DNA of 64,000 nucleotides from a virus (IMGVR_UViG_3300042894_001948), one strand, 5' to 3'; counted from the stretch's first letter, positions 17,801 through 60,479 are shown. The notes: generated by a model from the sequence alone, not told the origin. Program-made: numbers and translations.

Positions 17801-20800
17801 GGGGTTTGACCAATACTTAATTCAGCTGTATTTCCAGATGTTAACGTAACTACTGCAGTGCCAGTTGACAACGTAGCAGATAATCCAGTAACTGTTCCAA
17901 CAGTGATTGTAATACTGCCTGCAGTTTTATGATTAACCGATAGTGTAAATTGTGTAAGACTGTCAATTGAGATAATAGTTAACGATGTATCTTGTGCCGG
18001 CACATATTTTACAATTGTGCCATATGCGTCCGATGCATCAACTGTTGATGAACCGACACCAAGTACTACTTTAGCAGGAAAAATATCGTTGTTTGACGGT
18101 GACCCTTGATCAACAAATCCTCTACCACCATTGTTAACACAAACATGCCATATTCCAGTGCCGTATGATGCAACTGGTGCTACGCCGACACCGTATTGAA
18201 GAATATTAAGAACTGTATCAAAACTATTAGTAAATTTTGTTATTGAATCATTTGAATTTAATATACCTGTTCCATTTAATGTCAATGTAACAGAATTACC
18301 AGTTAATGTAGTTAATTTAAAATTATGAGTAGTTGCATTTGCTACATAATAAATTGTATTGGTAACAATACCAGTAGTTGTTGTGATAGATGAGAATGAT
18401 ACTGATGTACCGTTAGTTAGACCATGGCTAGTTAAAACAACTAAATCGCCAATATCAACAAACGATACTGATCTTAATGATGCAACATTTGCTGCTATAT
18501 TACCTTGTACAAATATAGAAGTTGACGGTAACTCGCTTGCATTTGAGAATGAAACAAGCTGAGGCAACGATTGATATCTAACTGCAGTTTCTTTATTTAA
18601 GACCTGCAATGCAACTGTTTTAGCAAATTGTAATCCGTCAAGCGATTGTTTATAATGTGTGCCGCCAACTGCAATAGTTCTTGCACTAGCATTTTTATAA
18701 AAACTTTTTCCTGAATTAATAGCTTGCCATGTTCCGCCTGTTATTAAATCAATACACATTGAATCAATGATAAATCCTAAATCTCTATAACACAACGATT
18801 CATCGTATACAAACCCGCCTGCAAATGTAGTATTAACATACACAACAGTGCTGTTAACAATTGACGTTGAATTGTTTATAATAAGATTTCTTAATGATAT
18901 TGCATTTCTATACATATCATTTGTATCATTATTAGTAAATGTATCTTCGTTAACTAGCGTTATTGTAGGGCTGGCAACAGTTAAAAAGTTAACAACTTTG
19001 TCAACTTTATCGTTAATTAACGCAGTTATTGCAGATAGTTGAGGCGCAGTGCCGGAATAATTAGCAGTAATTTGTGCAGTAGCAAAAGTTTTTACACGAT
19101 TAAAAATGTTTGTTGTACCGTTGGTGTTACCTGGTGCATCGCCAACTTTTGTATATTGTTGACTTGCTCGATATAATGCCGAATCTCCACCAAACGTTAT
19201 ATCATATAACAACGCAGTTACAATATTTTGTAATTCCTGAACCATCTTTACTCGATCATAAGTAACGCCGTAAAACAGTTCTCCAATATCTCGATTATCA
19301 TATACATACAATTCGGTGTTAGTAGCAATATTGTTAATGATACTATATGTAAAAATTGATCTAGTTTGATCAATCATTGCTGCAGTAATAGTTTGATTAG
19401 TGTTAACTTTTATATTTGAACTTAATGCAGGAAACGTTGGTAACGTTGTTGGAACTTTACCAGATTGTATAATATCGGTTATAACTTTGAATAATCTTAT
19501 AATTTTAGTTTGTTTAATCTCAGTATCAATTACTGGATAAAACTTATTCATAAACCAAGATGTAGATGTAGTAGGTCCGGTTGTATACACAGCAGTTGTA
19601 TTGCCAATACCGGTATAGACTGTTTGCAAATCACTATTGCCGGTTGTAATATCTGGGTATGTAGTAGACACTGGCACATTTGCAATATCAGTTAAAATAT
19701 CTGCAATTAACGTAATGTTTGACGAAACTGACAACGACGCAACTATACCATTAGATAGTGTATCATTTCTATATTGTCTTACAGATTGCTGATATGATAC
19801 GTTTAATGTACCGTTTTTAATAATTGATTGTGCTAATACGTTGACATGTCTAATTGCTGCAATACATGCTTCTGATTCTGAATCTTTAATAAAATTAGAT
19901 GATGCGTTAGCCCAAAATTGTTTTCCAGCATACACACTTTGACTATTACCGCCGTATGTTAAATCGTATACTAAACTCCAAATAATATATTTTATATCAC
20001 GATTGCTTAACGCTCTATCATAAATTACATTTGGATATTTTGAACTTAAAAACGACAATGTTTCAGCTTGAATAAATGCAATATTTTCTAACAATAACTG
20101 TTTAGCTGATGCATGCCCAACTAGATCATACCCTACTGCTGGATTTGCAGGTAATGGATACTTTACTGCAGGCAATGTTCCGTACAGTACGTAGTTACGA
20201 ATAACGTTAATATTTGAAATAATTAAACTTGTTTTTGATGCCGCTGGTAGATTACGAATTGCCGGTGTTAACATTAACAAGTTGATTAAATTTTTACGAT
20301 CTATGGTACCAGTTGCACTAAATCTTCCAGCATTTAATTGTAATGTAGTATTTGAGAACGAAACTGAAGTAAGGGTTGATCTAGTAACTACAAACGAAAC
20401 AACTGCACTGTTATTAAATGAAGAAATTGTAACCGCATCAGACGCAATATCTATACCAATTAGAGATGCATTAATAAGAATCTCACTTGCTACTGGATAC
20501 AAAATTGATGTTTGTGTGTTAAAGAATAATGTTATTTGAGATCCGTCACACTCTGCTGATTTAATAGATATTGGATTAATAATTAACATAGATGCTAATT
20601 GTTCAGCACTTATATTAGTACCAGCATTTTTAAATGCAATTGCTGTTTGAACACTTTGATAATTTGATTTAAACAATGCATCGTACTTAATTGCATTAAT
20701 TAATTGTAAAGTATATGCTTGTAATGCAACTGTGTTATATGAGAAATCGATAATTTGATCTCTTATAAAGTTAACAGTTTCGACCCACTGAATTAAACCA

Positions 20801-22888: not shown

Positions 22889-23419
22889 TTATCCTGTATA
22901 TCTACAGTGGCTTTTACGAGTTTCCCACAGCTCAACTGCAGTAACCTTTGCTACATCACCTATACGTGATTGAGCATACTCAAACAAATATTTACAAATG
23001 TTTTCGCTTGTTGGTACAAAATCAACTAATACAAAACTATTATAATGTAATTGCATACTGTCTGTTAGCCCAACCCAGTTATAACTTCCTAAATTTGAAA
23101 AGTTTTTAAAATCTTCAATCTTAGGCATGTGACTTGCTGTGATCATATCAAAATTTGGATCGTTAATATCAATCATAAATTTATGATCCAATACATCATC
23201 TACAAATTGTTTCATAAAGTTTAAATTCTTAAAGTCTGTAACCATTTCTGAATGATCTAACGTATCAGAACCTAAAAATACTTTAATTGAATAGCTGTGT
23301 CCGTGTAAATGCTTGCAGGCACAGTCAGTTGAAATACTTAACTCAACATGATTTAATTTTTGTGCCCATACTCTGTGTCCGCCTTCCCACGAAAATGTTT
23401 TGTCTATTTCCCACTTCAT
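22889..23419 (-). CDS. queD: 6-carboxy-5,6,7,8-tetrahydropterin synthase (QueD/PTPS family)
   Basis: Has the C-x3-H-G-H zinc motif (CKHLHGHSYSIKVFLG), a …MVTDF…LDH… core and a C-terminal …ETRKSHCRYTG. These are collinear with E. coli QueD (CGRLHGHSFMVRLEI…IIDF…LDH…ETCTAGCIYRGE). Confidence 0.75.
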   Translation of the reverse strand: MKWEIDKTFSWEGGHRVWAQKLNHVELSISTDCACKHLHGHSYSIKVFLGSDTLDHSEMVTDFKNLNFMKQFVDDVLDHKFMIDINDPNFDMITASHMPKIEDFKNFSNLGSYNWVGLTDSMQLHYNSFVLVDFVPTSENICKYLFEYAQSRIGDVAKVTAVELWETRKSHCRYTG

Positions 23420-23597
23420 ATATAAATTCCTATTGTTAAATTAAAAACATATTATACATTATTTAGAAAATTTTGTCAATCAGATAATAAATAGAAAGGT
23501 AGTTCACGGAATAGGGATTCCTAACTACTTTATTTATCTAAAACTAAAAGAACAATATTAGGTTGGGAAATAATTGAAATCTCAAAATGCATACCTT

Positions 23598-23621
23598 AAA
23601 TAAATGGGAGATTAATCTCCC
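23598..23621 (-). terminator. Perfect 9-bp-stem hairpin between two minus-strand genes (possible attenuator/terminator)
   Basis: AATGGGAGAttaaTCTCCCATT. The flanking T-tract is weak, so the call is tentative. Confidence 0.3.
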
Positions 23622-23685
23622 ATTTCATATAATTGCCTGTCTATTAAAAAGCTATATTATATAATCATTGCTTCAAGAAGTCAAC

Positions 23686-29057: not shown

Positions 29058-29567
29058 ATGAAATTAGATAAATTTGCAAACCCAATTTTTAACGAATCTG
29101 ATGTGTTTGATGTCTTGTATTCAGGACATCAAACATCATTATCAAATATTGTAGTTGAAAACACTTACGAATTTTCACAACTTTCTAAAATAGCAGAGAT
29201 GACCTTTGCTACATTTGATTCATCAACATACGACTTATCGATTGACGAGTTTGATAGCAAATCACAAGACTGCTGGTTTATGCCAATTGAATATTATTCA
29301 TTTGATGTACAAGAGTATTGTATATCAAAATGTACATCTAGTACTGAACAAACACGAGTTTTAGATGAGCTAGCAGAATTTAAAAAAAGAAACATGATTC
29401 GATTACTGCAATGGCTTAAATTTTTTGTAGATACCTGTTTACAAGAAAATATTATTTGGGGCGTAGGAAGAGGATCTAGTGTTTCTAGTTTCGTGTTATA
29501 TTTGTTAAATGTTCACAAAATAGATAGTATTAAATATAATTTAGATTGGCGAGAGTTTTTAAGATAA
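29058..29567 (+). CDS. Hypothetical protein (169 aa)
   Basis: ORF with compact spacing. No recognisable motif. Confidence 0.5.
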   Translation: MKLDKFANPIFNESDVFDVLYSGHQTSLSNIVVENTYEFSQLSKIAEMTFATFDSSTYDLSIDEFDSKSQDCWFMPIEYYSFDVQEYCISKCTSSTEQTRVLDELAEFKKRNMIRLLQWLKFFVDTCLQENIIWGVGRGSSVSSFVLYLLNVHKIDSIKYNLDWREFLR

Positions 29568-29589: not shown

Positions 29590-29934
29590 ATGGCATTATA
29601 CAAAACAGCTAAAGGTAAAGTAATTGATATGGCTAGACTAGCAAGTCAAAACGAACTTGCAGTTGCAGTAAGCAACGTTCGCATTAACGCAAGAGGCGAC
29701 GAATTAGGTCCAGGTGGTCAAATTATTCGTAAACAACCGGATGTTCCACATGTTCCGTCTACAGGAACACCAGTTGAAATATATTCTGCACCAGTACAGA
29801 CTGCACAACCTATAATTAAAGAACAACCTAAAGTACAACCGGCATTAACTACACCGGCTCCGGTTTTTGAGCCAATAGTCGAATCAGTTGCATCCGATTT
29901 TACTAAAGCTAACAACAATAAAGGTAAACAATGA
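29590..29934 (+). CDS. Hypothetical protein (114 aa)
   Basis: RBS AAAGGAG-N6-ATG. ATGA overlap with the downstream GroES-like gene. Confidence 0.55.
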   Translation: MALYKTAKGKVIDMARLASQNELAVAVSNVRINARGDELGPGGQIIRKQPDVPHVPSTGTPVEIYSAPVQTAQPIIKEQPKVQPALTTPAPVFEPIVESVASDFTKANNNKGKQ

Positions 29935-30314
29935 TTGTAACAGGACACCTAGATACTATTCATGATAATGTGTTAATTACAGATATGAACTTTGCAGAAC
30001 AATTTTCTGCAGGCGGGATTATTGTTAGCAGTGACAACGGTAAAACTGAAGGTATTAAACCTCGTTGGGGCAAAGTATTTAAAGTTGGTCCAGATCAATC
30101 TGACGTTAACGTCGGTGATTGGATTTTAATAGAACATGGTCGATGGACACGTGGTGTCGAAGTTGAAGACACTAACGGTAGCATTGTTACTGTTAGACGA
30201 GTTGAAACTAAAGCAATTATTGCAGTTTCAGATCATTTACCCACAGACGTCAACCTAGGCGCATCAAACGCATCAACTGTACAAGAGTTTGACTTTAGTC
30301 AGCCAATGTACTAA
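29931..30314 (+). CDS. Co-chaperonin GroES / T4 gp31-like protein
   Basis: The pattern …SAGGIIVSSDNGK…GKVFKVGPD……VNVGDWILIE……SIVTVRRVE..AIIAVSD parallels GroES (SAGGIVL…GEVLAVG…VKVGDIV…ESDILAIV). Confidence 0.55.
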   Translation: MIVTGHLDTIHDNVLITDMNFAEQFSAGGIIVSSDNGKTEGIKPRWGKVFKVGPDQSDVNVGDWILIEHGRWTRGVEVEDTNGSIVTVRRVETKAIIAVSDHLPTDVNLGASNASTVQEFDFSQPMY

Positions 30315-30320
30315 CCTGTG

Positions 30321-30351
30321 AAGACGCAGTATTTGACATACTGCGTCTTTT
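30321..30351 (+). terminator. Rho-independent terminator whose loop carries the -35 box of the next promoter
   Basis: AAGACGCAGTATttgacATACTGCGTCTTtt: a 12-bp perfect stem followed by a T-tract. Confidence 0.6.
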
Positions 30352-30361
30352 ACGCTATAAT
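30333..30361 (+). promoter_or_regulatory. Consensus sigma70 promoter TTGACA-N17-TATAAT
   Basis: TTGACA at 30333-30338 and TATAAT at 30356-30361, about 30 nt upstream of the clamp-loader ATG. Confidence 0.6.
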
Positions 30362-30391
30362 ACACTTTTAAACTAATCAATAGGTATCACA

Positions 30392-31312
30392 ATGGCAACA
30401 AAATCATTATGGGTAGAATCTTACCGTCCTGCAACTCTTGACGGATATGTATTCAAAGACGACAGACAACAACAACAGATACAGAGTTGGATTGAACAAA
30501 AAAGTATTCCGCATTTATTGTTTAGTGGCGGCGCAGGTGTGGGCAAAACAACACTTGCAAAAATATTATTTAATGAATTAGAAATAGATGATTTGGATAT
30601 TTTAGAAATCAACGCATCTCGTGAACGCGGCATTGACGCAATGCGAGATAGAATTACAAACTTTATTCAAATGATACCGTTTGGTGAGTTTAAAGTAGTG
30701 CTACTTGACGAAGCTGACTTCTTAACACCGCCTGCACAGGCTAGCTTACGTGGTATTATGGAAGAATATTCCGATACATCAAGATTTGTACTAACATGTA
30801 ACTACCCAAATAAAATTATTCCTGCTATTCATTCGAGATGTCAAGGATTCCATATTGAAAAAGTTGATAGTGTAGAATTTACTGCACGAGTTGCTACAAT
30901 TTTAATGGAAGAAAACATTGAATTTGAGTTAGATACACTTGATACTTATGTTAAAGCAACTTATCCAGATTTAAGAAAATGTATTAACACTATTCAAATG
31001 AATAGCATATCTGGTGTACTTAAAACGTCGGCTACTGGTGATGCAGGACTTCCTGACTACAAACTTGAAATGGTTGACTTATTTAAAGCAGGTAAAATTG
31101 ATACTGCCCGTAAATTATTATGCTCTCAAGCACGTCCGGAAGAAATGGAAGAGATTTATAGATGGTTATACGATAATATTAGTGTATTTGGCGATGAAGA
31201 TAAACAACGCAAAGCAATTCTTATTATTAAACAAGGTCTAGTCGATCATGCGCTAATATGTGATGCAGAGATTAATTTATCTGCTACATTAATACGATTA
31301 GGCAATCTGTAA
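30392..31312 (+). CDS. Clamp-loader ATPase subunit (RFC small-subunit / T4 gp44-like)
   Basis: Walker A GGAGVGKTT, DEAD-box-like LLDEADFLT and the sensor-1 SRC. The length (306 aa) and order of motifs match the RFC/gp44 family. Confidence 0.85.
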   Translation: MATKSLWVESYRPATLDGYVFKDDRQQQQIQSWIEQKSIPHLLFSGGAGVGKTTLAKILFNELEIDDLDILEINASRERGIDAMRDRITNFIQMIPFGEFKVVLLDEADFLTPPAQASLRGIMEEYSDTSRFVLTCNYPNKIIPAIHSRCQGFHIEKVDSVEFTARVATILMEENIEFELDTLDTYVKATYPDLRKCINTIQMNSISGVLKTSATGDAGLPDYKLEMVDLFKAGKIDTARKLLCSQARPEEMEEIYRWLYDNISVFGDEDKQRKAILIIKQGLVDHALICDAEINLSATLIRLGNL

Positions 31313-31314
31313 AC

Positions 31315-31343
31315 TTGCAGTAATGCATTTAATATAGTATAAT
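31315..31343 (+). promoter_or_regulatory. Sigma70-like promoter TTGCAG-N17-TATAAT
   Basis: TATAAT at 31338-31343 and TTGCAG at 31315-31320, upstream of the small membrane protein/SPFH pair. Confidence 0.5.
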
Positions 31344-31373
31344 ATGTTTTTATTTAATTACTAAGGAGCAACT

Positions 31374-31583
31374 ATGTTGTTAATTTATTTTAAGGTGCTA
31401 GCTGTATTATTATTCTTTCTACTACAGTTTATTTTTGTACTACCGTACTACATGTCATCAAACGAATGGTGGGAATTTACACTAGGTTGGTTTATTTTAT
31501 TAATCATTGATCCGATTGTAATTTACAAATTATGGAAGGATGCAGTTAAACCCGTTGACGAACTTTTTAAGGAGGTAAAATAA
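31374..31583 (+). CDS. Small two-TM membrane protein, translationally coupled (TAATG) to the SPFH gene
   Basis: Contains LAVLLFFLLQFIFVLPYY and FTLGWFILLIIDPIVIY. An AAGGAG RBS for the next gene lies inside its 3' end. Confidence 0.5.
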   Translation: MLLIYFKVLAVLLFFLLQFIFVLPYYMSSNEWWEFTLGWFILLIIDPIVIYKLWKDAVKPVDELFKEVK

Positions 31584-32434
31584 TGAATAAATTACTATTA
31601 GTTGCAGCAATGGCTACTGTACTTTCTGGCTGTTCAAATGTTAATGTAGGCGAAGTAGGCATTAAAGTACATTTACTAGGCGGTGATAAAGGTGTTGACA
31701 CTGAGCAATTAACTCCAGGACGTTATTGGATTGGTATAAATGAACAACTGTATACGTTCCCAACATTTATGCAAAACTATACATGGACAAGATCTCGTAA
31801 TGAAGGTCGTAACGAAGATGAGTCAATTACATTCCAAACTAAAGAAGGCCTGTCTGTAAACGCAGATATTGGTATTACTTACACATTACAACCAGATAAA
31901 ATTCCAGTGTTATTCCAAAAATATCGCAAAGGTATTGATGAAATCACACACGTTTATTTGCGTAATTTAGTGCGTGATGCAATTAACACTGAGTCATCTA
32001 CTAAGTCAATTGACTCTGTTTACGGTGAAGGTAAATCAGATTTAATTAAAGCTGCTGAACATCGTGTTCGTGCTGAAGTTGAATCATACGGTATTGTGTT
32101 AGATCACTTATCTTGGGTTGGTGATATTAGATTGCCAGAGACTGTAACTGCTGCAATTAATGAAAAGATTGGTGCATCGCAACAAGCAATCACACGTCAG
32201 AACCAAGTTGAAACTGCTAAAGCACAAGCTGCAATTGCTATTGCACAAGCAGATGGTGAAGCTCAAGCACGCCTACTCGTAGCTGAAGCTGAAGCTAAAG
32301 CTATTCATTTAAAAGGTGAGGCTGTTAAGAACAATCCAGGTGTAGCAGAACTTAATGCCATAGAAAAATGGAACGGTGTGTTACCTGTTACTATGTTACC
32401 AAACAGTTCAGTACCAATGATTGGAATAAAATGA
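31583..32434 (+). CDS. SPFH/band-7 (stomatin/YqiK-flotillin-like) lipoprotein
   Basis: Lipobox LSGC at the N-terminus. SPFH core, and a C-terminal Ala/Glu-rich coiled coil (…KAQAAIAIAQADGEAQARLLVAEAEAKAIHLKGEA…) typical of YqiK/flotillin-like proteins. Confidence 0.75.
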   Translation: MNKLLLVAAMATVLSGCSNVNVGEVGIKVHLLGGDKGVDTEQLTPGRYWIGINEQLYTFPTFMQNYTWTRSRNEGRNEDESITFQTKEGLSVNADIGITYTLQPDKIPVLFQKYRKGIDEITHVYLRNLVRDAINTESSTKSIDSVYGEGKSDLIKAAEHRVRAEVESYGIVLDHLSWVGDIRLPETVTAAINEKIGASQQAITRQNQVETAKAQAAIAIAQADGEAQARLLVAEAEAKAIHLKGEAVKNNPGVAELNAIEKWNGVLPVTMLPNSSVPMIGIK

Positions 32435-32862
32435 AAGCCAAGTTTAAACAGGCTTTTATGAAAACAGCTTATGTATTTGCGGAATTAAGTTCCGCAATTA
32501 AGCTTAAAGTTGGTGCTGTTGTAGTTAAAGACGATAGAATTATTAGTCTTGGCTACAATGGTACTCCTACGGGATGGGATAATGTATGCGAACTTGAAAT
32601 TATTAATTTTCAGGATGGATCTGTTCAACTTAAAACTAAATCAGAAGTTATTCATGCAGAAATGAATGCACTTATGAAACTAGCAAGTTCAACTGAATCT
32701 GGTAAAGGTGCAGCTATCTTTATTACCCATTCGCCTTGCATGGAATGTGCTAAAGGAATATATCAAACTGGTATAACTGAAGTATACTATACCGAAGCAT
32801 ATCGTAATGTAGATGGTATTGAATTTTTACAAAAATGTGGTATTACTGTTGAAAAACTATAA
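32431..32862 (+). CDS. dCMP deaminase (cytidine/deoxycytidylate deaminase family)
   Basis: Zinc-binding HAEMNAL and PCMECAK motifs. The likely start is the ATG at 32431 (MKAKFKQAF…), overlapping the SPFH stop. Confidence 0.8.
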   Translation: MKAKFKQAFMKTAYVFAELSSAIKLKVGAVVVKDDRIISLGYNGTPTGWDNVCELEIINFQDGSVQLKTKSEVIHAEMNALMKLASSTESGKGAAIFITHSPCMECAKGIYQTGITEVYYTEAYRNVDGIEFLQKCGITVEKL

Positions 32863-32900
32863 AAATAGCAGCTGAACTAGTCAGCTGCTAGTTCTATTTT
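32861..32900. terminator. Bidirectional terminator between convergent dCMP deaminase (+) and phoH (-)
   Basis: aaaaatAGCAGCTGAactagTCAGCTGCTagttctatttt. Confidence 0.6.
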
Positions 32901-32907
32901 AAAACTT

Positions 32908-33639
32908 CTAACTTTCCCCGTAGAGTGCTAAAACCTCCTTCACAGCACTATGTCGTTCAATATCCTTATGCGTAAAGTACGCAACCTCAATATGGCTTAA
33001 TGCCGTTTTATTTTTATCTAATCTATCGATAAACTCCAATAATCCGTTATCATGCAAGCGATCAGCTTGAGCTAAATCCCCTGTTACAACCATACGTGAA
33101 TTTTCCCCTAATCTAGTAAGAGCCATCTTCATTTGATTAGGTGTAGTATTTTGAGCCTCGTCAAAAATGATATAAGCATTTTTAAACGTTCTCCCTCTCA
33201 TATAACTTAGTGGACTGATTTCAATATCACCTTCAGCTAGAAATTTTGCAATATCTGTCTGATGGTAATACTCTCCGAATACATCAAAAATAGGTCTTGT
33301 CCATGGCGCCATCTTTTCATTTAATGTGCCTGGTAAGAACCCTAATTCTTCATCTACCGATACTGCTGGTCTAGTTACAATAATCTTATCTATTAACCCT
33401 TCTTGAAATAATTTAATCCCATTTTGAACTGCTAACATTGTTTTCCCTGTACCTGCCGGTCCAACTGCAAACACAATGCTAGTATCTTCATCTTGTAGCA
33501 TTGCGACATATTCTTTCTGACTTTGGTTTCGCGGGTTTAATGTTACGCTGTATCTTTTTGGTTTAATCAATTTTGGTTGTTGAAACTCAACTATGTTAAC
33601 TTGCGATGTGAAACGTTTTTGTACTCGTTTTTGGGCCAT
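32908..33639 (-). CDS. phoH: PhoH-like ATPase
   Basis: Walker A GPAGTGKT, …IIFDEAQN… Walker B, …VVTGDLAQADR…. The length (243 aa) is typical of phage PhoH. Confidence 0.85.
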   Translation of the reverse strand: MAQKRVQKRFTSQVNIVEFQQPKLIKPKRYSVTLNPRNQSQKEYVAMLQDEDTSIVFAVGPAGTGKTMLAVQNGIKLFQEGLIDKIIVTRPAVSVDEELGFLPGTLNEKMAPWTRPIFDVFGEYYHQTDIAKFLAEGDIEISPLSYMRGRTFKNAYIIFDEAQNTTPNQMKMALTRLGENSRMVVTGDLAQADRLHDNGLLEFIDRLDKNKTALSHIEVAYFTHKDIERHSAVKEVLALYGES

Positions 33640-33788
33640 ATAGTATAACTCCTAGATTGTGTTAGAATGGTAGTAACCACAGCGACATGACTACTACACA
33701 GTTATTTAATAGATCATATGCAAATATAAAGAAATACCGGTTGATTTTAAACCAGGATAAATAAGTGTAAACGTTTTAGGATATTATT

Positions 33789-34370
33789 ATGGCAACGGAT
33801 GTATTAGATATTATTAAAAACATTCAAACTCTATACGAGAACAATTCAAGTTTAGCAGTATTAAAAGACTTTGAACGAGTACTTGACGAATTAGATTTGT
33901 ATGTTTATAAAAATTGGGAAGATGGTGAATTGGCCTATGGTCCAAAAGTTGATCGGCATTGGATTACTGTTGGATTTATGTGGCCAAAAGATAAAATGCC
34001 CGATCCAGATGGCGGTAAACGATTAGTAGATCTAGGATGCAAAGTTAAGTATCAAAAATCTCATCTTATTGATCCTCGCCCAATTAAGTCACCAGACGAT
34101 ATACGCCCAGGTACTAAAAAAGGTAAATTAGACAGACATCCAATTTGGATTGTAGAAATGCAAATGCCAAAAAAATTAGCATTTGATATGTATAAAGGCT
34201 ATATGGATAAATTAAAAAATGAAAATAGAGAGACCGACACTGCACCGCAACAAGGAACACCTACTCCAGCAGCTCCAGCAGGTGCACCAGGTATGCCTCC
34301 AGCAGCTCCAGCAGGTGCACCAGGTATGCCTCCAGCAGGCGGCGGTATGCCTCCAGCAGCTCCAATGTAA
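33789..34370 (+). CDS. Hypothetical protein (193 aa) with a C-terminal PAAPAGAPGMPP tandem repeat
   Basis: Three copies of (PAAPAGAPGMPP)-like units at the C-terminus. The matching DNA repeat is 'ccagcagctccagcaggtgcaccaggtatgcct' x2-3. Confidence 0.55.
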   Translation: MATDVLDIIKNIQTLYENNSSLAVLKDFERVLDELDLYVYKNWEDGELAYGPKVDRHWITVGFMWPKDKMPDPDGGKRLVDLGCKVKYQKSHLIDPRPIKSPDDIRPGTKKGKLDRHPIWIVEMQMPKKLAFDMYKGYMDKLKNENRETDTAPQQGTPTPAAPAGAPGMPPAAPAGAPGMPPAGGGMPPAAPM

Positions 34371-34378
34371 GGATTACA

Positions 34379-35107
34379 ATGATTATTACAGAAAGGTTAC
34401 ACGCAAACGATCTTAAGAATTTAGTGAATCGGATTTTTGAAATTGATTCATATAAAAGTAAAATTGGAGATGATGAAGACGTTATTGTCTTATCATTTAC
34501 TGTTGATCACGAAGATCCTGCAAAAGATTTAGAAAATTTTGTTGAAATGGGCTACGACTTTGTATTAGATGCAGATGTTAGTCCAGGCGAAACAGATGAC
34601 GGAAATTATAAAGTTTTTATTGAAATTGAGCGCACTAGACATGCTCCTGAGATTATTTTAGAATTAATATCTGGTATTGAGAAATTAACAAGTATACCAG
34701 ATATGAAATTTAGATACTTTAAAAGTTTTAAGAGTTATGATGCAAATTTAAAGAACTTAACTAAACATATTCCTTGTAATCAAGAAGACTACGAAGAAGC
34801 AACTAAAAAACACGGGTTAGATAACTTTAGTAACTTCTTTAAAGAGAGTTTCTCAGAAGTTACAGTACTCGACGAATCAATTTCATTTAAAAATCAATGG
34901 AGTGATTCATTAAAATTTGATATTATTACTAGTGGACCTAAACAAACAGTTTATAACGAAATACAAGGTCCAATTGTGTTAGAAGGAAGTGCAATTGCAG
35001 AAGTAATGTACTTTACAAAACGCATTGGCAACTACAATATTACCAAAGTTGGTAATACATTTATATTTGAAAACAGCGGATGGGCTGTTGCATTGGAGAA
35101 AAAATAA
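34379..35107 (+). CDS. Hypothetical acidic protein (242 aa)
   Basis: ORF with tight spacing to its neighbours. No recognisable motif. Confidence 0.55.
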   Translation: MIITERLHANDLKNLVNRIFEIDSYKSKIGDDEDVIVLSFTVDHEDPAKDLENFVEMGYDFVLDADVSPGETDDGNYKVFIEIERTRHAPEIILELISGIEKLTSIPDMKFRYFKSFKSYDANLKNLTKHIPCNQEDYEEATKKHGLDNFSNFFKESFSEVTVLDESISFKNQWSDSLKFDIITSGPKQTVYNEIQGPIVLEGSAIAEVMYFTKRIGNYNITKVGNTFIFENSGWAVALEKK

Positions 35108-35727
35108 TGGCATTCACATTTACAGAAGCACACTTAGCAAAAATTATTCCAGGTAACTCATACATTTCAGAATGGTATGATGCGTTATCGTCTATCTTAC
35201 CAGAATACGATATTAACACACCAGAACGCGTCGCAGCATTCCTTGCGCAAACTGCACATGAAAGTGGTAACTACACTGCATTAAAAGAAAACTTGAACTA
35301 CAAAGCAGTTACCTTGCAAAAAGTATTTCCTAAATACTTTCCAAATGCAGCATTAGCAGAATCTTATGCAGGTAAACCAGAAAAAATTGCTAGCAAAGTG
35401 TACGGTGGACGTATGGGTAACGGTGACGAATCTACAGGCGAAGGATATAAATTCTGCGGACGTGGTCTTATTCAATTAACAGGTAAAGACAACTATACAC
35501 GTTTTTCTGAAAGCTTAGAAATGGATATTGATGAAGCTATTGAATACTTAGAAACATTTGAAGGCGCTGTGCAAAGTGCTTGTTGGTTTTGGGAAACTAA
35601 TAACTTAAATCAATGGGCTGACAAAGGTGACATTGTTACACTTACAAAACGTATTAATGGTGGCACTATTGGACTTGAAGATCGCAAACATCATTATGCT
35701 AACGCAATGAAAGTATTGAGTGCATAA
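35107..35727 (+). CDS. Endolysin, glycoside hydrolase family 19 (chitinase-like lysozyme)
   Basis: GH19 signature …RVAAFLAQTAHESGNYTALKE…KYGGRG.IQLTG..NY…. The start is taken at the ATG at 35107, preceded by GGAG. Confidence 0.8.
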   Translation: MAFTFTEAHLAKIIPGNSYISEWYDALSSILPEYDINTPERVAAFLAQTAHESGNYTALKENLNYKAVTLQKVFPKYFPNAALAESYAGKPEKIASKVYGGRMGNGDESTGEGYKFCGRGLIQLTGKDNYTRFSESLEMDIDEAIEYLETFEGAVQSACWFWETNNLNQWADKGDIVTLTKRINGGTIGLEDRKHHYANAMKVLSA

Positions 35728-36227
35728 TGTTTATCTTACATTTCCTCCCTGATTCATATTTACTTTGGGCGGTTAATACAATCCTGCTATTAGGTGCTAT
35801 CGGTACTATAGCAGGATTTTTTATTAAGTTCATTCCATTTTTAAATCATTACAAGCTATTGTTAAATATACTGTCAACATTTTTACTAGTTGTAGGAGTT
35901 TACTTTAAAGGTGGTTATGGTGTTGAAATGGAATGGCGTAACCGTGTAGCAGAACTTGAACAAAAAATAGCTGTAGCAGAAGCCCAATCAAAAGAGGTTA
36001 ATATCCAAATTGAAACTCGTGTAGTGGAAAAAGTAAAAGTTATTAAGGAAAAAGTATATGCAACCAAAAAAATTATTCAAGAACACAAAGAGATTATTAA
36101 TGCCAAATGTACTGTTCCTGATGTTGCAAGGGTGCTCTACAACAGTGCCGTTAACAATGAGCTTCCCGCAGGTACCTCCGTCCTTGATGGAGCCAGCACC
36201 AACGTTAAAGACATTATCTCAAACTAA
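35727..36227 (+). CDS. i-spanin (Rz-like), candidate
   Basis: N-terminal TM helix (WAVNTILLLGAIGTIAGFFIKFI…), then a coiled-coil periplasmic domain. It lies immediately after the endolysin (ATAATG overlap). Confidence 0.55.
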   Translation: MFILHFLPDSYLLWAVNTILLLGAIGTIAGFFIKFIPFLNHYKLLLNILSTFLLVVGVYFKGGYGVEMEWRNRVAELEQKIAVAEAQSKEVNIQIETRVVEKVKVIKEKVYATKKIIQEHKEIINAKCTVPDVARVLYNSAVNNELPAGTSVLDGASTNVKDIISN

Positions 36228-36357
36228 ACCAGAATTAAGTGATATATTAGACAATGCTAGTGAGAATTACGGTTCTTACTATGAGTTACGAGAACGATAT
36301 CTTGCCTGGCAAGATTGGTACAAACAACAAAAGAAAATATATGAGGACGTAAAATGA
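36058..36357 (+). CDS. o-spanin (Rz1-like) lipoprotein, starting inside the i-spanin gene in the +1 frame, candidate
   Basis: Signal peptide and lipobox (…VLFLMLQGCST…) followed by a Pro-rich periplasmic segment. The overlapped out-of-frame arrangement matches the classic Rz/Rz1 pattern. Confidence 0.55.
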   Translation: MQPKKLFKNTKRLLMPNVLFLMLQGCSTTVPLTMSFPQVPPSLMEPAPTLKTLSQTKPELSDILDNASENYGSYYELRERYLAWQDWYKQQKKIYEDVK

Positions 36358-36758
36358 AAAAAGTATTAGCAATTATTATACTTAGTATGCTATCCGGTTG
36401 TGCAGCAATGGATGCATATTTTATGGCTAAATTTGATGAAAATGAATATCAACTGATTAATGACGTTCGCAGTCTTTCTCAAATAAGCGCAGAATTTTGT
36501 GGTAATCAACAACAAATGGTTCCAATTGTAGATCGTATATATTTAAAAAGTATGGAATTTAAAAACTATGCTGAATTTATACCAGAAAACAAAGCAACTA
36601 TAAAACTATCGGAATCGTTAATGGATTTAACGGAGCCGTTGCATGTGCGGTATCATAAAACAGAAAAAATAAGTGAAGCTTATTGTAAACAGAAAATGGA
36701 TATTTTAACAAAAGCGGCAAGTACAATTGCCCAAACTATAGGGAGTAAACCACGATGA
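36354..36758 (+). CDS. Lipoprotein (134 aa)
   Basis: Lipobox …ILSMLSGCAAM…. ATGA overlap with the o-spanin stop. Confidence 0.5.
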   Translation: MKKVLAIIILSMLSGCAAMDAYFMAKFDENEYQLINDVRSLSQISAEFCGNQQQMVPIVDRIYLKSMEFKNYAEFIPENKATIKLSESLMDLTEPLHVRYHKTEKISEAYCKQKMDILTKAASTIAQTIGSKPR

Positions 36759-37024
36759 GTACACAAGATATTTTAAATAGTTTAAGCGGATACGACACTG
36801 TTAAAAGTCATGCTCTTGCAGATGCAGCAGCAGAACTTAAAGGATTAACTGAAGACTTTCAAAACGGTGTTATTAGTGCTTCTGAATATGAAGAATTGTT
36901 ACAAGACATTTCTACAACTGGCATTATTATTGAAGATGCAGCAGCACTTAGCGCACAAACTGAATTAAACAAAATTATAAACACTGCAATCACAATTGCA
37001 TCAACAGCAGCAAAAGCAATTTAA
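36755..37024 (+). CDS. Hypothetical protein (89 aa), Ala-rich helical
   Basis: ATGA overlap with the upstream gene. Confidence 0.45.
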   Translation: MSTQDILNSLSGYDTVKSHALADAAAELKGLTEDFQNGVISASEYEELLQDISTTGIIIEDAAALSAQTELNKIINTAITIASTAAKAI

Positions 37025-37039
37025 ATACAAGGAACGTAA

Positions 37040-37513
37040 ATGGAAGAAAATAAAGAGGATTTTATGACAAAATACTGGCGCCCAATGATGGCAATGACTT
37101 ACATGATTACATGTTTGTTTGACTTCGTATTAGGACCAATTTTATACAATATTTTACAATACTACAACCCCGGTCAAAACTTAGACATGTGGCAACCATT
37201 AACATTACAAGGTGGTGGTCTTTATCACATTGCAATGGGTGTTGTATTAGGTATTTCAGCTCACGGTCGTACACAAGAAAAAATTAACACACCAAGTTTA
37301 CCTGGAATGGGTAGTTTCATGCCGGCACCGCAAGAACCACCAGCTCCGGCTCCAGTTTATGCACCTGCACCGGCTCCAGTTTATGCACCAGCACCTGCAC
37401 CGGTATATGTACCGCCAGCACCTGCTCCAGCACCAGTAGTTGAAGAAGCTCCTGCACCTGTTAGAAAAAGACCGATGGCAAAACCAATTCCAAAATCAGA
37501 TGAACCAATTTAA
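37040..37513 (+). CDS. Two-TM membrane protein with a Pro-rich PAPAPVYA tandem repeat tail (holin candidate)
   Basis: TM1 MAMTYMITCLFDFVLGPILY, TM2 LYHIAMGVVLGISAHG. Then PAPAPVYAPAPAPVYAPAPAPVYVPPAPAPAPV. It sits adjacent to the lysis cassette. Confidence 0.45.
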   Translation: MEENKEDFMTKYWRPMMAMTYMITCLFDFVLGPILYNILQYYNPGQNLDMWQPLTLQGGGLYHIAMGVVLGISAHGRTQEKINTPSLPGMGSFMPAPQEPPAPAPVYAPAPAPVYAPAPAPVYVPPAPAPAPVVEEAPAPVRKRPMAKPIPKSDEPI

Positions 37514-37522
37514 GGAAACATT

Positions 37523-37759
37523 ATGAAAAAACTTTTATCATTAATTATTATTGGCATGTTAGCAGCTTCACCAGTTGCATATGCTAATCATGAAGAAGGC
37601 CATGTAGGCCCAACTACTAAAGAAGTTTGCAAAACTGTAAAAGGTAAGAAACAATGCAAAACTATCAAAGTTCATAAGAAATTTGAAGGTAAAAAAGTTC
37701 CACCTAAAAAAGCAGTTGTGAAACCAACTCCAAAAAAAGTAGTTAAAAAACACAAATAA
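37523..37759 (+). CDS. Small secreted lysine-rich protein (78 aa)
   Basis: N-terminal signal peptide MKKLLSLIIIGMLAASPVAYA. The mature part is K/V-rich with two Cys. Confidence 0.5.
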   Translation: MKKLLSLIIIGMLAASPVAYANHEEGHVGPTTKEVCKTVKGKKQCKTIKVHKKFEGKKVPPKKAVVKPTPKKVVKKHK

Positions 37760-37768
37760 TCAAAATCT

Positions 37769-37797
37769 TGACAGGTCAGTTATTGTATAGTATAATT
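37769..37797 (+). promoter_or_regulatory. Consensus sigma70 promoter TTGACA-N17-TATAAT upstream of dnaJ
   Basis: TTGACA at 37769-37774 and TATAAT at 37792-37797. It is embedded in a larger inverted repeat (AGGTCAGTT … AACTGACCT). Confidence 0.65.
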
Positions 37798-37833
37798 ACT
37801 GTACAAACTGACCTTTTTTATGAGAAATTAACC

Positions 37834-38673
37834 ATGACAGACTTTTATTCAAAATTAGGTGTGTCCAAAGACGCATCACAAGACGATATTAAAAAAGCAT
37901 ATCGTTCATTAGCTAACAAGCACCATCCGGACAAAGGTGGAGACCAGGCAACATTTAAAGATATATCAGTAGCATATGATACGTTAAGTGATCCACAAAA
38001 ACGCCAAGAATACGATATGCAACAAAATAGCAATCCATTTGGAGGATTCCACGGCGGAGGACAACATTTCCACTTTGATATGAATGACATGTTTGGCCAA
38101 CATGCACATTTTACAAATATGTTTGGAAATGGATTTAGACAGCAACAACGAAATAGAGATTTAAATCTACAAGTACAAGTAACGCTGGTTGAATCGTACA
38201 ATGGAAAACAAGTTGATGCAACATTTAATATGCCAAGTGGACGACCACAAACCGTAACAATAAACGTTCCGGCTGGTATTGATCACGGTGATACTATTAG
38301 ATATAACGGGTTAGGAGATGATTCTATTCCTAATATACAAAGAGGAAACCTTAATGTAACTGTTCATGTTATTCCTGATCCTAATTTTAGAAGAGAAGGC
38401 AACGATGTATACACAACGTTGCATATTTCACCAATTGAAGCAATGATCGGGTGTATCAAAGACGTTAAGACTATTACAGGCAACACTATTCAAGTAACAA
38501 TTAGACCAGGTGTCGAAACAGGCACAGAGTTTGCTAAAGCAGGTGCCGGTTTTACAAATCTACACAGCAAACAAACTGGAAGATTTGTTACGGTTATTAA
38601 AATTGCTCCGTGTTTAGTAACAGATCCAGCATTAGTAGCACAATTGCAGCAAATACAAAGCCAACTTGCTTGA
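37834..38673 (+). CDS. dnaJ: DnaJ-family co-chaperone (J domain plus C-terminal substrate-binding domain; no zinc-finger repeat seen)
   Basis: J-domain DFYSKLGVSKDASQDDIKKAYRSLANKHHPDKGGD with the HPD tripeptide. The C-terminal beta-rich region resembles DnaJ_C. The start is taken at the ATG at 37834. Confidence 0.8.
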   Translation: MTDFYSKLGVSKDASQDDIKKAYRSLANKHHPDKGGDQATFKDISVAYDTLSDPQKRQEYDMQQNSNPFGGFHGGGQHFHFDMNDMFGQHAHFTNMFGNGFRQQQRNRDLNLQVQVTLVESYNGKQVDATFNMPSGRPQTVTINVPAGIDHGDTIRYNGLGDDSIPNIQRGNLNVTVHVIPDPNFRREGNDVYTTLHISPIEAMIGCIKDVKTITGNTIQVTIRPGVETGTEFAKAGAGFTNLHSKQTGRFVTVIKIAPCLVTDPALVAQLQQIQSQLA

Positions 38674-38697
38674 CATTATTATAAAATAGTGTATAAT
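38670..38697 (+). promoter_or_regulatory. Sigma70 promoter TTGACA-N16-TATAAT upstream of the ClpA-like gene
   Basis: TTGACA at 38670-38675 and TATAAT at 38692-38697. GGAG RBS before the ATG at 38732. Confidence 0.6.
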
Positions 38698-38731
38698 ATA
38701 ACTTTATTTACAACTACAAGGAGCTACTACT

Positions 38732-41017
38732 ATGGTTGAACCAAGCGATACACTACAAACAATCTTTGACAAAGCAATTACTGCTGCAAAAAATATGCAT
38801 CACGAATATGTTACGCTTGAACATGTGTTATTTTCAATGCTTATGGAAGATGAGCATTTTGCTAATACTATTCAAGGATATGGCGCAGATATTGTTTTCC
38901 TTAAAAATGTAGTATTAGAACATCTTCAAACTAAGTGTCACGAGATAACTACTACAGAAGTAGTAGTTAAACCTAAAAAAACACAAGCAGTTGAACGTTC
39001 ATTAAATCGTGCATTTACGCAAGTATTGTTTAATGGTGGTCAAAAGATACAGCCGGTTGATTTTTTCCTAGCAATGTTAGGTGAAAAACGGTCATGGGCA
39101 TTCTATTATGTATCGCAAGTAAATATTACTAAAGAAAAGTTTAATGAATACTTAGTTAATGTGTTAGATGACGACGATCCCACTGCTGAATCAGTTAAAT
39201 CATCGCCTGTTAATAATAAAGCATTACAAGCATACACTACTAACTTAAATGATGAAGTTAAAAATAACAAGATTGATCCGGTTATTGGTCGTGTTGACGA
39301 ACTTGAACATATTGCATTAGCACTAGGGCGTCGTAGCAAAAACAATGTTATTATGGTAGGTGATCCTGGTGTAGGTAAGACTGCAATTGCTGAAGGTCTT
39401 GCATTTAATATTGTAAATGGCTCAGTTCCGGAGTTTTTAATAGACTACACAGTATACAATCTAGACATCGCTGCTATGTTAGCTGGTTCTAAGTACCGAG
39501 GCGACTTTGAAGAACGATTTAAAGCTGTTATTAAGTCATTACAGAAACTTGGTAAATGCGTATTGTTTATTGATGAAGCACATATGATTAGTGGTGCAGG
39601 GGCATCGGGTAATTCATCTAATGATTTAGCTAATATGATGAAGCCTGCCCTTAGTAAAGGTAACATTAAAGTTATTGCAAGCACTACATGGGATGAATAT
39701 CGTAAACACTTTGAGAAAGATCGTGCATTAATGCGTAGATTCCAACGAATTACAGTTGATGAGCCTACACAAGAGATGACTTTACAGATTCTTAAAGGTA
39801 TTAAGAAGTATTACGAAGGGCATCACAAACTTAAAATTAAAGACGATGCATTACAAGCAGCAATTAAGCTATCTGTAAAGTACCAAGCAGACAAAAAGTT
39901 ACCAGATAAGGCTATTGACTTAATTGATTGCGCATGTTCGAGGTTTAACCTAAAACTTGCAACTGATCGAGTAGTAGCTGAGGCTGAAATCCAGTTTGAA
40001 CTGGCTAAAATGCTTAACATGCCAGTTGAACAGATTATGCAGACTGAAACTACGTCGTTAGTGACGTTACAAGAGAAGTTAGAAGCCGAAGTATATGGTC
40101 AAGACACTGCATTAACTGAAATTGTTGACAAGATTATGGTTGCCCAAGCTGGTTTGAAGCCCGAAAACAAGCCAATTGGTAGTTTTGTGTTTATGGGGCC
40201 TACTGGTTGTGGTAAAACCGAGACTGCTAAAGCTCTAGCTAAACACTTAAACACTAAATTAATACGGTTTGACATGTCAGAGTACCAAGAAAAACATAGT
40301 ATTAGCAAGTTGATTGGTAGTCCTCCAGGTTATGTAGGCTTTGAAGACAATGCAGGCCTGTTGATTACACAGATTCAAGAGAATCCTAACGCTGTATTAC
40401 TGTTTGATGAGATTGAAAAGTCACATCCAGACGTATCAACAGTATTACTACAAATGATGGACAACGGATTTGTTACAGGGTCTAATGGTAAACAAGCCGA
40501 TTGTCGCCATATTGTACTAATTTTAACTACAAACGCCGGTGCACAGACTGCAGAAAAGAATCAAATCGGCTTTGGTACTCAAGAAAAAGACTATTCAGAT
40601 GCAGATCTTAAAAAGTTTTTATCACCTGAGTTCCGTAACAGATTAGACGGGGTTATTACGTTTAATAAACTAAGCAAAGACTCCATGGTTAAGGTTATTA
40701 ACAAATTCATCGACGAAGTACGTGAACAAGTTAAAGACAAAGGTATTCGTATTAAGATTGACAAGGCTGCAACTAACTGGTTACTAGAAAAAGGATTTGA
40801 TCCTAAGATGGGTGCTAGACCGTTACATCGTGTAATTGATAAAGAAATCAAACGCGATCTTGCTAAAATGATGTTATTTGGTGATCTTAAAAACGGTGGC
40901 TGGTTAACTATTAGTGTAACTGATGATAAGATTACACTCATTGCTAAACCTAAAACACCTAAGGTACAAACAATTACATTTGATAAAATGTTTGAAGTTA
41001 ACGATGCCGATGTATAA
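38732..41017 (+). CDS. Two-domain AAA+ Clp/Hsp100 ATPase (ClpA-like, no obvious ClpB middle domain)
   Basis: N-domain, D1 Walker A GDPGVGKTAIAEGLA with Walker B LFIDEAH, D2 Walker A GPTGCGKTETAKALA with LLFDEIEKAH, and sensor-2 GARPL. 761 aa. Confidence 0.85.
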   Translation: MVEPSDTLQTIFDKAITAAKNMHHEYVTLEHVLFSMLMEDEHFANTIQGYGADIVFLKNVVLEHLQTKCHEITTTEVVVKPKKTQAVERSLNRAFTQVLFNGGQKIQPVDFFLAMLGEKRSWAFYYVSQVNITKEKFNEYLVNVLDDDDPTAESVKSSPVNNKALQAYTTNLNDEVKNNKIDPVIGRVDELEHIALALGRRSKNNVIMVGDPGVGKTAIAEGLAFNIVNGSVPEFLIDYTVYNLDIAAMLAGSKYRGDFEERFKAVIKSLQKLGKCVLFIDEAHMISGAGASGNSSNDLANMMKPALSKGNIKVIASTTWDEYRKHFEKDRALMRRFQRITVDEPTQEMTLQILKGIKKYYEGHHKLKIKDDALQAAIKLSVKYQADKKLPDKAIDLIDCACSRFNLKLATDRVVAEAEIQFELAKMLNMPVEQIMQTETTSLVTLQEKLEAEVYGQDTALTEIVDKIMVAQAGLKPENKPIGSFVFMGPTGCGKTETAKALAKHLNTKLIRFDMSEYQEKHSISKLIGSPPGYVGFEDNAGLLITQIQENPNAVLLFDEIEKSHPDVSTVLLQMMDNGFVTGSNGKQADCRHIVLILTTNAGAQTAEKNQIGFGTQEKDYSDADLKKFLSPEFRNRLDGVITFNKLSKDSMVKVINKFIDEVREQVKDKGIRIKIDKAATNWLLEKGFDPKMGARPLHRVIDKEIKRDLAKMMLFGDLKNGGWLTISVTDDKITLIAKPKTPKVQTITFDKMFEVNDADV

Positions 41018-54054: not shown

Positions 54055-54810
54055 ATGTTTTATGTATATGTATATCTAGATCCACTTTTTCCATCCAACT
54101 GTAGTTACGATAACATTTCCTTTACTTATGTGCCAATATATGTTGGTAAAGGTAAAGGAAATCGATATAAGGATCATATGGTAAAAACATCAAATAAAAT
54201 TTTTGAAAACAAGATACAGTTTTGGAAAACTAATAATATTAAACCAATTGTTATATTTATTGAAACTAATATATCTGAACAAGATGCATGGGATATAGAA
54301 GAACGATTAGTTGTAGAGATTGGAAGATTAGATTTAAAAACGGGACCATTATTAAATTTAACCAACGGTGGGGAAGGATGTTCCGGAATTATACCGTGGA
54401 ACAAAGGTATACAAACTGGTTCATTTTTAACAGCAGACGGTCAATCTAAAATAAGCAATGCTAATAAAGGTAAGGTACTTTCAGATGAAACTAAATCTAA
54501 AATAAGTGTAGCTAATAAAGGTAAACCTAAATCTATTGTGCATTGTAAAAAAATAAGTGAGTCACTGACGGGTAACATTCCGTGGAATAAAGGAAAACAC
54601 ACTGGTCAAGAATCGTGGATGACAGGTAAAGCTCACTCATTAGAATCTCGTAAAAAGATGTCAGATTCTCACAAGGGAAATACGCTCACTGAAGAACAAA
54701 AAACTAAAATTAGTAATAAATTAAAAGGGCGTGTTATATCAGATGAAACACGAATTAAAATGTCAGAATCAAAAAAACAATACTGGGCACAAAAGAAAAA
54801 TGGAACGTAA
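54055..54810 (+). CDS. GIY-YIG homing endonuclease with NUMOD3-like DNA-binding repeats
   Basis: N-terminal FYVYVY…YVGKGKGNRYKDH (GIY…YIG module). Repeated …IPWNKG…TG… / …NKGK..S.ETK.KIS.ANKGK… units downstream. Confidence 0.75.
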   Translation: MFYVYVYLDPLFPSNCSYDNISFTYVPIYVGKGKGNRYKDHMVKTSNKIFENKIQFWKTNNIKPIVIFIETNISEQDAWDIEERLVVEIGRLDLKTGPLLNLTNGGEGCSGIIPWNKGIQTGSFLTADGQSKISNANKGKVLSDETKSKISVANKGKPKSIVHCKKISESLTGNIPWNKGKHTGQESWMTGKAHSLESRKKMSDSHKGNTLTEEQKTKISNKLKGRVISDETRIKMSESKKQYWAQKKNGT

Positions 54811-60413: not shown

Positions 60414-60445
60414 CAATGGGCAATCATGATAGGAATGCCCATTTT
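60414..60445 (+). terminator. Hairpin with a short T-tract (possible terminator)
   Basis: AATGGGCAatcatgataggaaTGCCCATTtt. Confidence 0.4.
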
Positions 60446-60479
60446 AAAAATCAATTATGTAAGGAGTAAGGAATCTTAT

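Follow-up and report, generated by a model that had tools for sequence, protein, structure and literature searches.

The window analysed here is a stretch of 64,000 nucleotides from a virus (IMGVR_UViG_3300042894_001948), which corresponds to about 17.3-81.3 kb of the source contig Ga0453678_0000005 (Joint Genome Institute (JGI) metagenome sample 3300042890). On 11 kb of this stretch (total span 11,087 bp) lie three genes, namely those of a GroES/T4 gp31-type co-chaperonin, of a J-domain protein and of a ClpA-type AAA+ unfoldase, and a gene for the peptidase ClpP is found elsewhere on the same contig. The three genes had been proposed in a sequence-only reading of this DNA and are confirmed at the same coordinates, with matches far beyond chance; they are real and, as far as sequence can tell, look functional. 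The features under discussion are as follows, in window coordinates except for the last.

29590-29934 (+): open reading frame (ORF) of 114 amino acids (aa), function unassigned, phrog_14844; stop codon and Cpn10-like start codon overlap (ATGA)
29931-30314 (+): GroES/T4 gp31-type co-chaperonin (Cpn10 fold), 127 aa, from Pfam, PHROG, hhalign and a fold match of an AlphaFold2 (AF2) model
30317-30354 (+): terminator-like hairpin directly 3' of the Cpn10-like stop (-18.9 kcal/mol, z -5.4), followed by a T-run
30333-30361 (+): perfect sigma-70-type promoter of the clamp-loader gene (30392-31312), 3' of the Cpn10-like stop
37768-37796 (+): perfect sigma-70-type promoter (TTGACA-N17-TATAAT) of the J gene, from hexamer match and conservation
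37773-37814 (+): long hairpin followed by T6 (-22.8 kcal/mol, z -6.0), with the -10 hexamer across its apical loop
37834-38673 (+): class B (type II) J-domain protein, 279 aa, from Pfam and DnaJ2/CbpA matches
38670-38697 (+): perfect sigma-70-type promoter of clpA, with the J stop TGA (38671-38673) inside the -35 hexamer
38732-41017 (+): ClpA-type double-ring AAA+ unfoldase, 761 aa, with N-domain, D1, D2 and D2-small domain and without M-domain, from full-length alignment and motifs
L451:25121-25711 (-), about 7.4-8.0 kb left of the window start and on the same strand as clpA: ClpP, 196 aa, from Pfam and identity

The source is an uncultured freshwater jumbo phage of the Rak2-like type ('group 2.2'), with a GC content of about 35% and no tRNA genes in the window. 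A near-identity DNA search against deposited phages gave no match for the window, and the three proteins are 35-45% identical to those of cultured Rak2-like jumbo phages, namely Agrobacterium phage Atu_ph07, Sinorhizobium phage Phosso and Pseudomonas phage PA5oct, the cultured relatives further including Vibrio phage 2.275.O and the E. coli 121Q/PBECO4-like phages. Relatives from metagenomes, on contigs of up to about 375 kb, are far closer: there are 761 homologues of the co-chaperonin and at least 8,000 of ClpA (E <= 1e-50), the best 120 of which are 76-100% identical. The ClpA motif counts given below refer to these best 120 relatives, the neighbour counts to sets of 80 relatives and most promoter and hairpin counts to distinct relatives. 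The analysis itself shows which genes these are, that their motifs are intact, how far sequence and gene order are conserved, how the promoters and terminator-like hairpins are built and that ClpP is encoded.

The co-chaperonin and its upstream partner

The 127-residue protein scores above the cut-off of the Pfam Cpn10 family (PF00166; 27 bits vs. 21.1) and matches phrog_931, annotated as 'head morphogenesis' (E 1.5e-14); the NCBIfam GroES model did not match it. When a profile of 25 relatives was compared by hhalign with E. coli GroES, the probability was 94.5% (E 7.6e-8), the reference sequences having been verified against PDB entries. This alignment places EQFSAGGIIV, in a mobile loop of about residues 23-45, opposite the GroEL-binding loop ETKSAGGIVL of GroES; the loop is 4 residues longer than that of GroES, and among the 25 relatives G29 is invariant and I30 nearly so. 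The roof hairpin of GroES is absent, as seen from a 9-column gap facing residues 45-53 or so of GroES. At the C-terminus the protein has a conserved extension of about 27 aa, which ends in FDFSQPMY. The AF2 monomer model (predicted local distance difference test (pLDDT) score 74.7) is a confident beta-barrel, in which residues 27-40 of the loop are of low confidence, as expected of a disordered loop. Among solved structures the sole significant fold match of this model is T4 gp31 (1g31_A, E 9.5e-4), whereas the hhalign sequence comparison with gp31 remains below significance (probability 20.7%, over 33 columns).

A Cpn10 score above cut-off, a preserved GroES mobile loop and a gp31 fold match thus bear out the assignment of a GroES/gp31-like co-chaperonin. 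Heptamer formation and binding to GroEL are predicted by analogy, and with its deleted roof hairpin and gp31 type this co-chaperonin looks specialised for a particular client.

The pairing of the Cpn10-like gene with the 114-aa ORF appears obligatory in this lineage, a homologue of the latter being found directly 5' of the former in 80/80 IMG/VR relatives, with an overlap of 4 nt in 42 of them and 1 nt in 11, and again in PA5oct and Atu_ph07. The ORF displays a conserved N-terminal motif, ...VNARGDELGPGG..., and may be a functional partner of the co-chaperonin.

The J-protein, ClpA and the phage-encoded ClpP

ORF callers, including the JGI annotation, place the start of the J gene at TTG 37768, and the ORF so delimited (37768-38673) matches the Pfam families DnaJ (E 4.4e-22) and DnaJ_C (E 6e-31). 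This TTG begins at the first base of the -35 hexamer; the true start is ATG 37834, which removes 22 spurious residues and leaves a protein of 279 aa. Its layout comprises a J domain with the His-Pro-Asp (HPD) tripeptide (KHHPDKGG), a Gly/Phe-rich region and two C-terminal substrate-binding domains; the HPD-containing 7-residue motif occurs in 70 of the 76 tblastn hits among relatives. No CxxCxGxG zinc finger is present in the protein or in the 76 relatives. The DnaJ model TIGR02349 reaches 187 bits vs. a cut-off of 377, and the match with class A models is broken into two stretches, between which the zinc-finger part is lacking. The best full-length match of solved structure is Thermus DnaJ2, in a single stretch over residues 3-243 (E 2.8e-33), and the CbpA model PRK10266 also aligns in one stretch (2-274 vs. 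3-289 of 306), with a score of 119 vs. an equivalog cut-off of 403. The sequence-only reading spoke of DnaJ and of a full J-protein with HPD; the HPD is present, but on sequence grounds this is a class B J-protein and not DnaJ proper.

The two-ring ClpA-like ATPase is well supported, residues 9-734 aligning with residues 7-740 of E. coli ClpA in a single stretch (E 3e-192). The match with ClpB, ClpC and Hsp104 breaks into two stretches, the phage protein having no M-domain; without this coiled coil in D1 and with an Ile-Gly-Phe (IGF) loop, it does not have the features of a ClpB/Hsp104 disaggregase. No defect is seen in the two Walker A/B pairs, the two pore loops, the arginine-finger motif or sensor 2. 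GDPGVGKT, KYRGDFE, GPTGCGKT, PPGYVG, PEFRNRLD and GARPL, of which KYRGDFE and PPGYVG are the pore loops, are each found in 115-120 of the 120 relatives, and the first Walker B motif reads VLFIDE in 107 of them and ILFIDE, a conservative V/I change, in the other 13. Among NCBIfam families TIGR02639 (ClpA) scores best, with a full-length match of 847.6 bits vs. an equivalog cut-off of 993.15. Recent capture of the gene from a host was considered and rejected, as the protein shows roughly equal identity to E. coli ClpA and to distant phage ClpAs, and as the synteny is conserved across phage families.

Regarding the ClpP-docking loop, which the sequence-only reading had proposed to check by alignment, IGF at residues 612-614 lies opposite the IGL docking tripeptide of E. 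coli ClpA and is kept in 119/120 relatives amid variable flanking residues. IGF is also present in Atu_ph07, PA5oct and Phosso, the tripeptide being IGV in Vibrio 2.275.O and LGL in phage A4. With the docking loop, the ClpA pore loops and the GroES mobile loop, on which the case for the three genes had been made to depend, all in place, the phage encodes components of three chaperone or protease systems that look able to work.

The ClpP gene is located on the source contig about 46 kb upstream of clpA. Its product scores 254.7 bits with Pfam CLP_protease, is 59% identical to E. coli ClpP and retains the catalytic Ser, His and Asp, with an N-terminus (MPALIPMVVE) similar to that of mature ClpP. 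ClpP and ClpS were found neither in the window nor within 10 kb of clpA in the 80 relatives, and homologues of a ClpP taken from a related sample turned up on other contigs only; one relative contig of 80.6 kb holds ClpP together with the Cpn10-like gene and ClpA, and ClpP is present throughout cultured Rak2-like phages. By gene content the lineage carries a complete ClpAP pair, with a predicted coupling of its two members, and so need not depend on host ClpP. With a ClpP of its own, triad intact, on the same contig, the suggestion that ClpA serves to feed host ClpP loses its footing.

ClpA could also operate without ClpP, as an unfoldase remodelling or disaggregating replication or assembly complexes, with the J-protein and host DnaK acting in parallel. 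ClpA alone, as known from E. coli, and DnaJ/DnaK are both able to activate P1 RepA; besides, the J gene adjoins clpA in 76/80 relatives and the promoter type of the pair, described below, is common with replication genes, all of which would suit such a function. The near-constancy of IGF amid variable neighbours and the retention of a ClpP gene on the same genome and throughout the lineage speak against it, and together they argue for selection on ClpP docking; ClpP-free remodelling is accordingly considered quite unlikely.

Promoters, embedded hairpins and gene order

Perfect TTGACA-N16-18-TATAAT sites number 6 in the window, vs. 0.14 expected, and precede the PTPS gene, the clamp-loader gene, the J gene, clpA, a DsbA-like/DNA polymerase B region and an ORF at 52869; the T4-type late promoter TATAAATA occurs only 5 times where 15 would be expected. 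The J promoter is a 12/12 match in 30 of the 44 distinct relatives compared, and 42 of the 44 reach at least 10/12, even where J identity falls to 52-60%, and the clpA promoter matches at least 11/12 in all 13 distinct relatives with a J-protein at least 66% identical. As for the co-chaperonin, no sigma-70-like site above 9/12 lies within 100 nt of the Cpn10-like start in the 80 relatives. An 11/12 site at 29512-29540 was examined as a candidate and rejected, its -10 element falling in conserved K-Y-N codons of the upstream gene, so that conservation is uninformative on promoter function there. The claim that each gene has its own consensus promoter consequently holds for the J gene (37768) and clpA (38670) and fails for the co-chaperonin, the site at 30333, probably the one taken for its promoter, lying downstream of it and serving the clamp-loader gene.

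Two of the perfect promoters are merged with a hairpin, the other four being without one. At the end of the co-chaperonin gene, the apical loop of the hairpin 30317-30354 is the TTGAC of the clamp-loader -35 element, and a covarying stem of at least 7 bp enclosing TTGAC, followed at 16-18 nt by a -10 element (at least 5/6), recurs in 47/66 distinct relatives. At the J promoter, the hairpin 37773-37814 begins just after the -35 hexamer (at the first base after it, when folded from there) and is found in 39/40 distinct relatives, with 14-19 bp and a mean of -19.1 kcal/mol. Covariation of the latter was assessed from per-sequence folds and pair counts by stem position, positions 3-7 each showing at least 3 Watson-Crick pair types; the embedded-hairpin loci were compared in relatives L011-L090 and L171-L250. 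The hairpin at the J promoter is probably the terminator of the upstream lysis-region genes, and the simplest reading of both structures is that a putative terminator closing one unit is merged with the promoter of the unit that follows.

Transcription in PA5oct relies on the RNA polymerase of the host and on TTGAC/TATAATA promoters (PMC7318152). In the window, the promoter type that the J gene and clpA have in common with replication genes suggests early expression of the two.

This promoter type bears on the idea that the chaperones are needed for giant fibres of 2.5-4.4 thousand residues, i.e. that the three proteins mainly fold or assemble the fibre-like proteins of 2,529 and 4,426 residues encoded in the window. 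The giant ORFs are real (125-7714 and 8851-22131), clpA adjoins large structural genes in PA5oct and phage A4, and DnaK/J is able to act on long multidomain chains. However, the J gene and clpA have the promoter type of the clamp-loader and DNA-polymerase genes, not of structural genes, and the IGF loop is a feature of protease docking rather than of folding. In addition, the cage of GroEL with GroES or gp31 holds about 60 kDa and not 280-480 kDa, and the 356-aa ORF between the two giant ORFs (7714-8784, minus strand) has a Peptidase_S74 domain, which is an intramolecular chaperone known from endosialidase and tail-fibre proteins and the usual means of folding fibres. No finding ties the three genes to the assembly of fibres, and a main role in fibre folding is deemed very improbable.

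The view of the three genes as one proteostasis module does not hold either, as they are interspersed with others and are spread over two transcription units or more; of the three, the J gene and clpA alone are tightly paired. Between the co-chaperonin and the J gene lie genes for a clamp loader, an SPFH/Band-7 lipoprotein, dCMP deaminase, PhoH (on the minus strand), two virion-protein homologues and a GH19 endolysin, as well as several membrane or lipoprotein genes. The gene order is nevertheless an old one: the series 114-aa ORF, co-chaperonin, clamp loader, PhoH (minus strand), two virion genes, J and ClpA is common to the window, PA5oct and Atu_ph07, and in four other contigs 7.5-9.6 kb separate the co-chaperonin from ClpA. 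About half of the distinct relatives, and Phosso as well, have a gene for peptide deformylase between the J gene and clpA, and where it intervenes clpA is without a promoter of its own. Its product is recognisable by the motifs GIGLAGNQVG, EGCLSFP and QHELDH (relatives L036-L090, e.g. L076:9516-10001 and L072:1409-1909; Phosso, L009:4421-4939). Because the deformylase gene sits between J and a promoterless clpA in these relatives, the ancestral arrangement looks like a J-deformylase-clpA operon; if this is read correctly, it suggests that the deformylase gene was lost in the window.

Several neighbouring genes deserve description for themselves. The probable lysis region (35080-37759), inserted between the virion genes and the J gene, comprises the GH19 endolysin, membrane proteins, a lipoprotein, a weak holin match and a small lysine-rich secreted protein. 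The SPFH/Band-7 protein (31583-32434) has a lipoprotein-type signal peptide (…LSGC), and neither PA5oct nor Atu_ph07 has an SPFH annotation at the corresponding place. In cells, SPFH proteins such as HflK/C act as modulators of the FtsH protease. Beyond the right end of the window, at about 3.5-5.9 kb from it, a gene for a MoxR-type AAA+ ATPase is followed by a DUF2201 gene (L454:16167-18512), and the contig also encodes the DsbA-like protein.

These last genes, i.e. SPFH, DsbA-like and MoxR AAA+ with its DUF2201 partner, are further chaperone-like genes of the contig and would agree with general stress relief, in which the chaperones keep the overloaded host proteome soluble until a very large phage completes its cycle. 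The same idea was proposed for Atu_ph07 by its authors (PMC6102473). It makes no specific prediction, though; no ClpB-type disaggregase was seen in the contig parts examined, and a gp31-type co-chaperonin without roof hairpin looks client-specialised, so we give stress relief a rather low probability.

Farther from the three genes, a PTPS/QueD-like gene (22889-23419, minus strand), a GTP cyclohydrolase I gene (61355-62032, plus strand) and a faint radical-SAM gene (L454:12281-13003) could together make a 7-deazaguanine-type base. Three homing-endonuclease-like genes (54055-54810, GIY-YIG/NUMOD3; 60426-61340, GIY-YIG; 62727-63533, HNH) lie amid replication and nucleotide-metabolism genes. About 5.8-7.1 kb left of the window start, a gene of the AmoC/PmoC family (ammonia or methane monooxygenase subunit C) appears split into pieces of 211 aa and 40 aa (L451:24179-24814 and 23559-23681, minus strand) and adjoins a NUMOD3 homing-endonuclease gene. 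The phage may perhaps be one of the freshwater amoC- or pmoC-phages, and the papers on such phages do not mention these chaperone/Clp genes.

Predicted roles and comparison with known systems

The reading we hold to be probable, with due reserve, is that of two separate lineage-conserved chaperone units working with GroEL, DnaK and ClpP as partners and including a ClpAP protease. The first unit would consist of the 114-aa ORF and the gp31-type co-chaperonin and end at its own terminator; by analogy with T4 gp31, the co-chaperonin heptamer would cap host GroEL through its hydrophobic loop, the absent roof hairpin and the longer loop enlarging the cage for a phage protein, most likely the major capsid protein. 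The second unit, J-clpA, would be transcribed, probably early, from perfect host sigma-70 promoters. Its class B J-protein would bring clients to host DnaK and stimulate the ATPase through HPD, and ClpA, as a hexamer, would use its IGF loops to dock onto ClpP, most likely that of the phage itself, giving a phage ATP-dependent protease that may unfold and degrade selected host or phage proteins. The partners (GroEL, DnaK, ClpP), the timing and the substrates are what we infer here.

Several points weigh against this two-unit reading. For this lineage it is drawn from the genes alone: the early timing is inferred from promoter type only, the text of the PA5oct omics paper does not mention expression of these genes, and the co-chaperonin client is assumed from T4. 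ClpS was not found in the about 82 kb examined of a contig of at least 266 kb, and the search for GroEL and DnaK covered only the same portion. The clpP gene is not co-transcribed with clpA, which lies 46 kb off, and the PA5oct ClpP is flagged as virion-detected by mass spectrometry, which hints at a morphogenetic role. Besides, because the ClpA score is under the equivalog cut-off, substrate or adaptor specificity may differ.

A bolder variant, which we regard as doubtful, would see in the J-protein, the ancestral deformylase and ClpA, encoded by an operon under a perfect host-type promoter, together with the phage's ClpP a proteolysis programme of the phage, probably early, for the selective unfolding and destruction of host proteins. 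If true, the system would be a host-takeover or anti-defence device and not a folding aid, with targets such as defence or housekeeping proteins, or N-terminally marked proteins.

T4 gp31 is the GroEL co-chaperonin for the major capsid protein gp23. The window's co-chaperonin resembles it in fold (1g31_A), in a hydrophobic loop motif (GGIIV here, GLII in gp31), in the absent roof hairpin, in a loop longer than that of GroES and in its 'head morphogenesis' PHROG; it differs in being nearer to GroES at the sequence level and in having both the conserved C-terminal extension and the obligatory upstream partner ORF. The likeness to E. coli ClpAP resides in the domain order, the full-length alignment, the ATPase and pore motifs, the docking tripeptide and the ClpP triad, but the J gene (or J and deformylase in relatives) takes the place of clpS upstream of clpA, clpP is remote and the ClpA score is lower than the equivalog cut-off. 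The J-protein is akin to Thermus thermophilus DnaJ2 and E. coli CbpA by its HPD J domain, G/F region, two C-terminal domains and single-stretch match, yet it falls under both the DnaJ and the CbpA equivalog cut-offs. Rki of phage RB43 is a J-domain-only protein, as opposed to the full substrate-binding domains of the window's J-protein. The two are alike in being encoded by phages, and for RB43 the use of host DnaK by such J-proteins is documented (cited in PMC12619734).

Among jumbo phages, ClpA (gp292), DnaJ (gp293), ClpP, ClpS, ClpX and ClpB are listed for Atu_ph07, and ClpA is described as conserved in Rak2-like phages (Attai et al., PMC6102473). Hsp10 was reported in group 2 and 3 jumbo phages, DnaJ sporadically in group 2.2, and ClpA, ClpP, ClpS and a MoxR-vWA pair were also described (Iyer et al., PMC7824862); the MoxR-DUF2201 pair of this contig is the chaperone-like pair reported for group 2.2. 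A phage transposon-mutagenesis preprint deals with phiKZ only and has no bearing on this lineage.

PA5oct, Atu_ph07 and Phosso are the closest systems: the same three genes are annotated there in the same order and in the same synteny block, with PhoH on the opposite strand, an upstream small ORF of 113-134 aa, an encoded ClpP and a kept IGF. The window differs by its inserted SPFH, dCMP-deaminase and lysis genes, and by a clpA with its own promoter instead of a deformylase gene between J and clpA as in Phosso and many relatives. The combination, presented in the sequence-only reading as going beyond the gp31 of T4-like phages, is hence not unusual for this lineage, and taken as a whole the observation is partly confirmed and its interpretation partly supported. 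Gene set and order being already known from cultured jumbo phages, the locus is a well-preserved new example rather than a new system, and current views are not overturned. It extends a documented Rak2-like trait to a very abundant uncultured freshwater clade, whose phages encode, by predicted role, a cap for GroEL, a recruiter of DnaK and a full ClpAP protease of their own. Strict conservation, which holds for the IGF loop as well as for the J promoter and the J-(deformylase)-clpA layout, provides concrete hypotheses that are testable in cultured relatives such as PA5oct.

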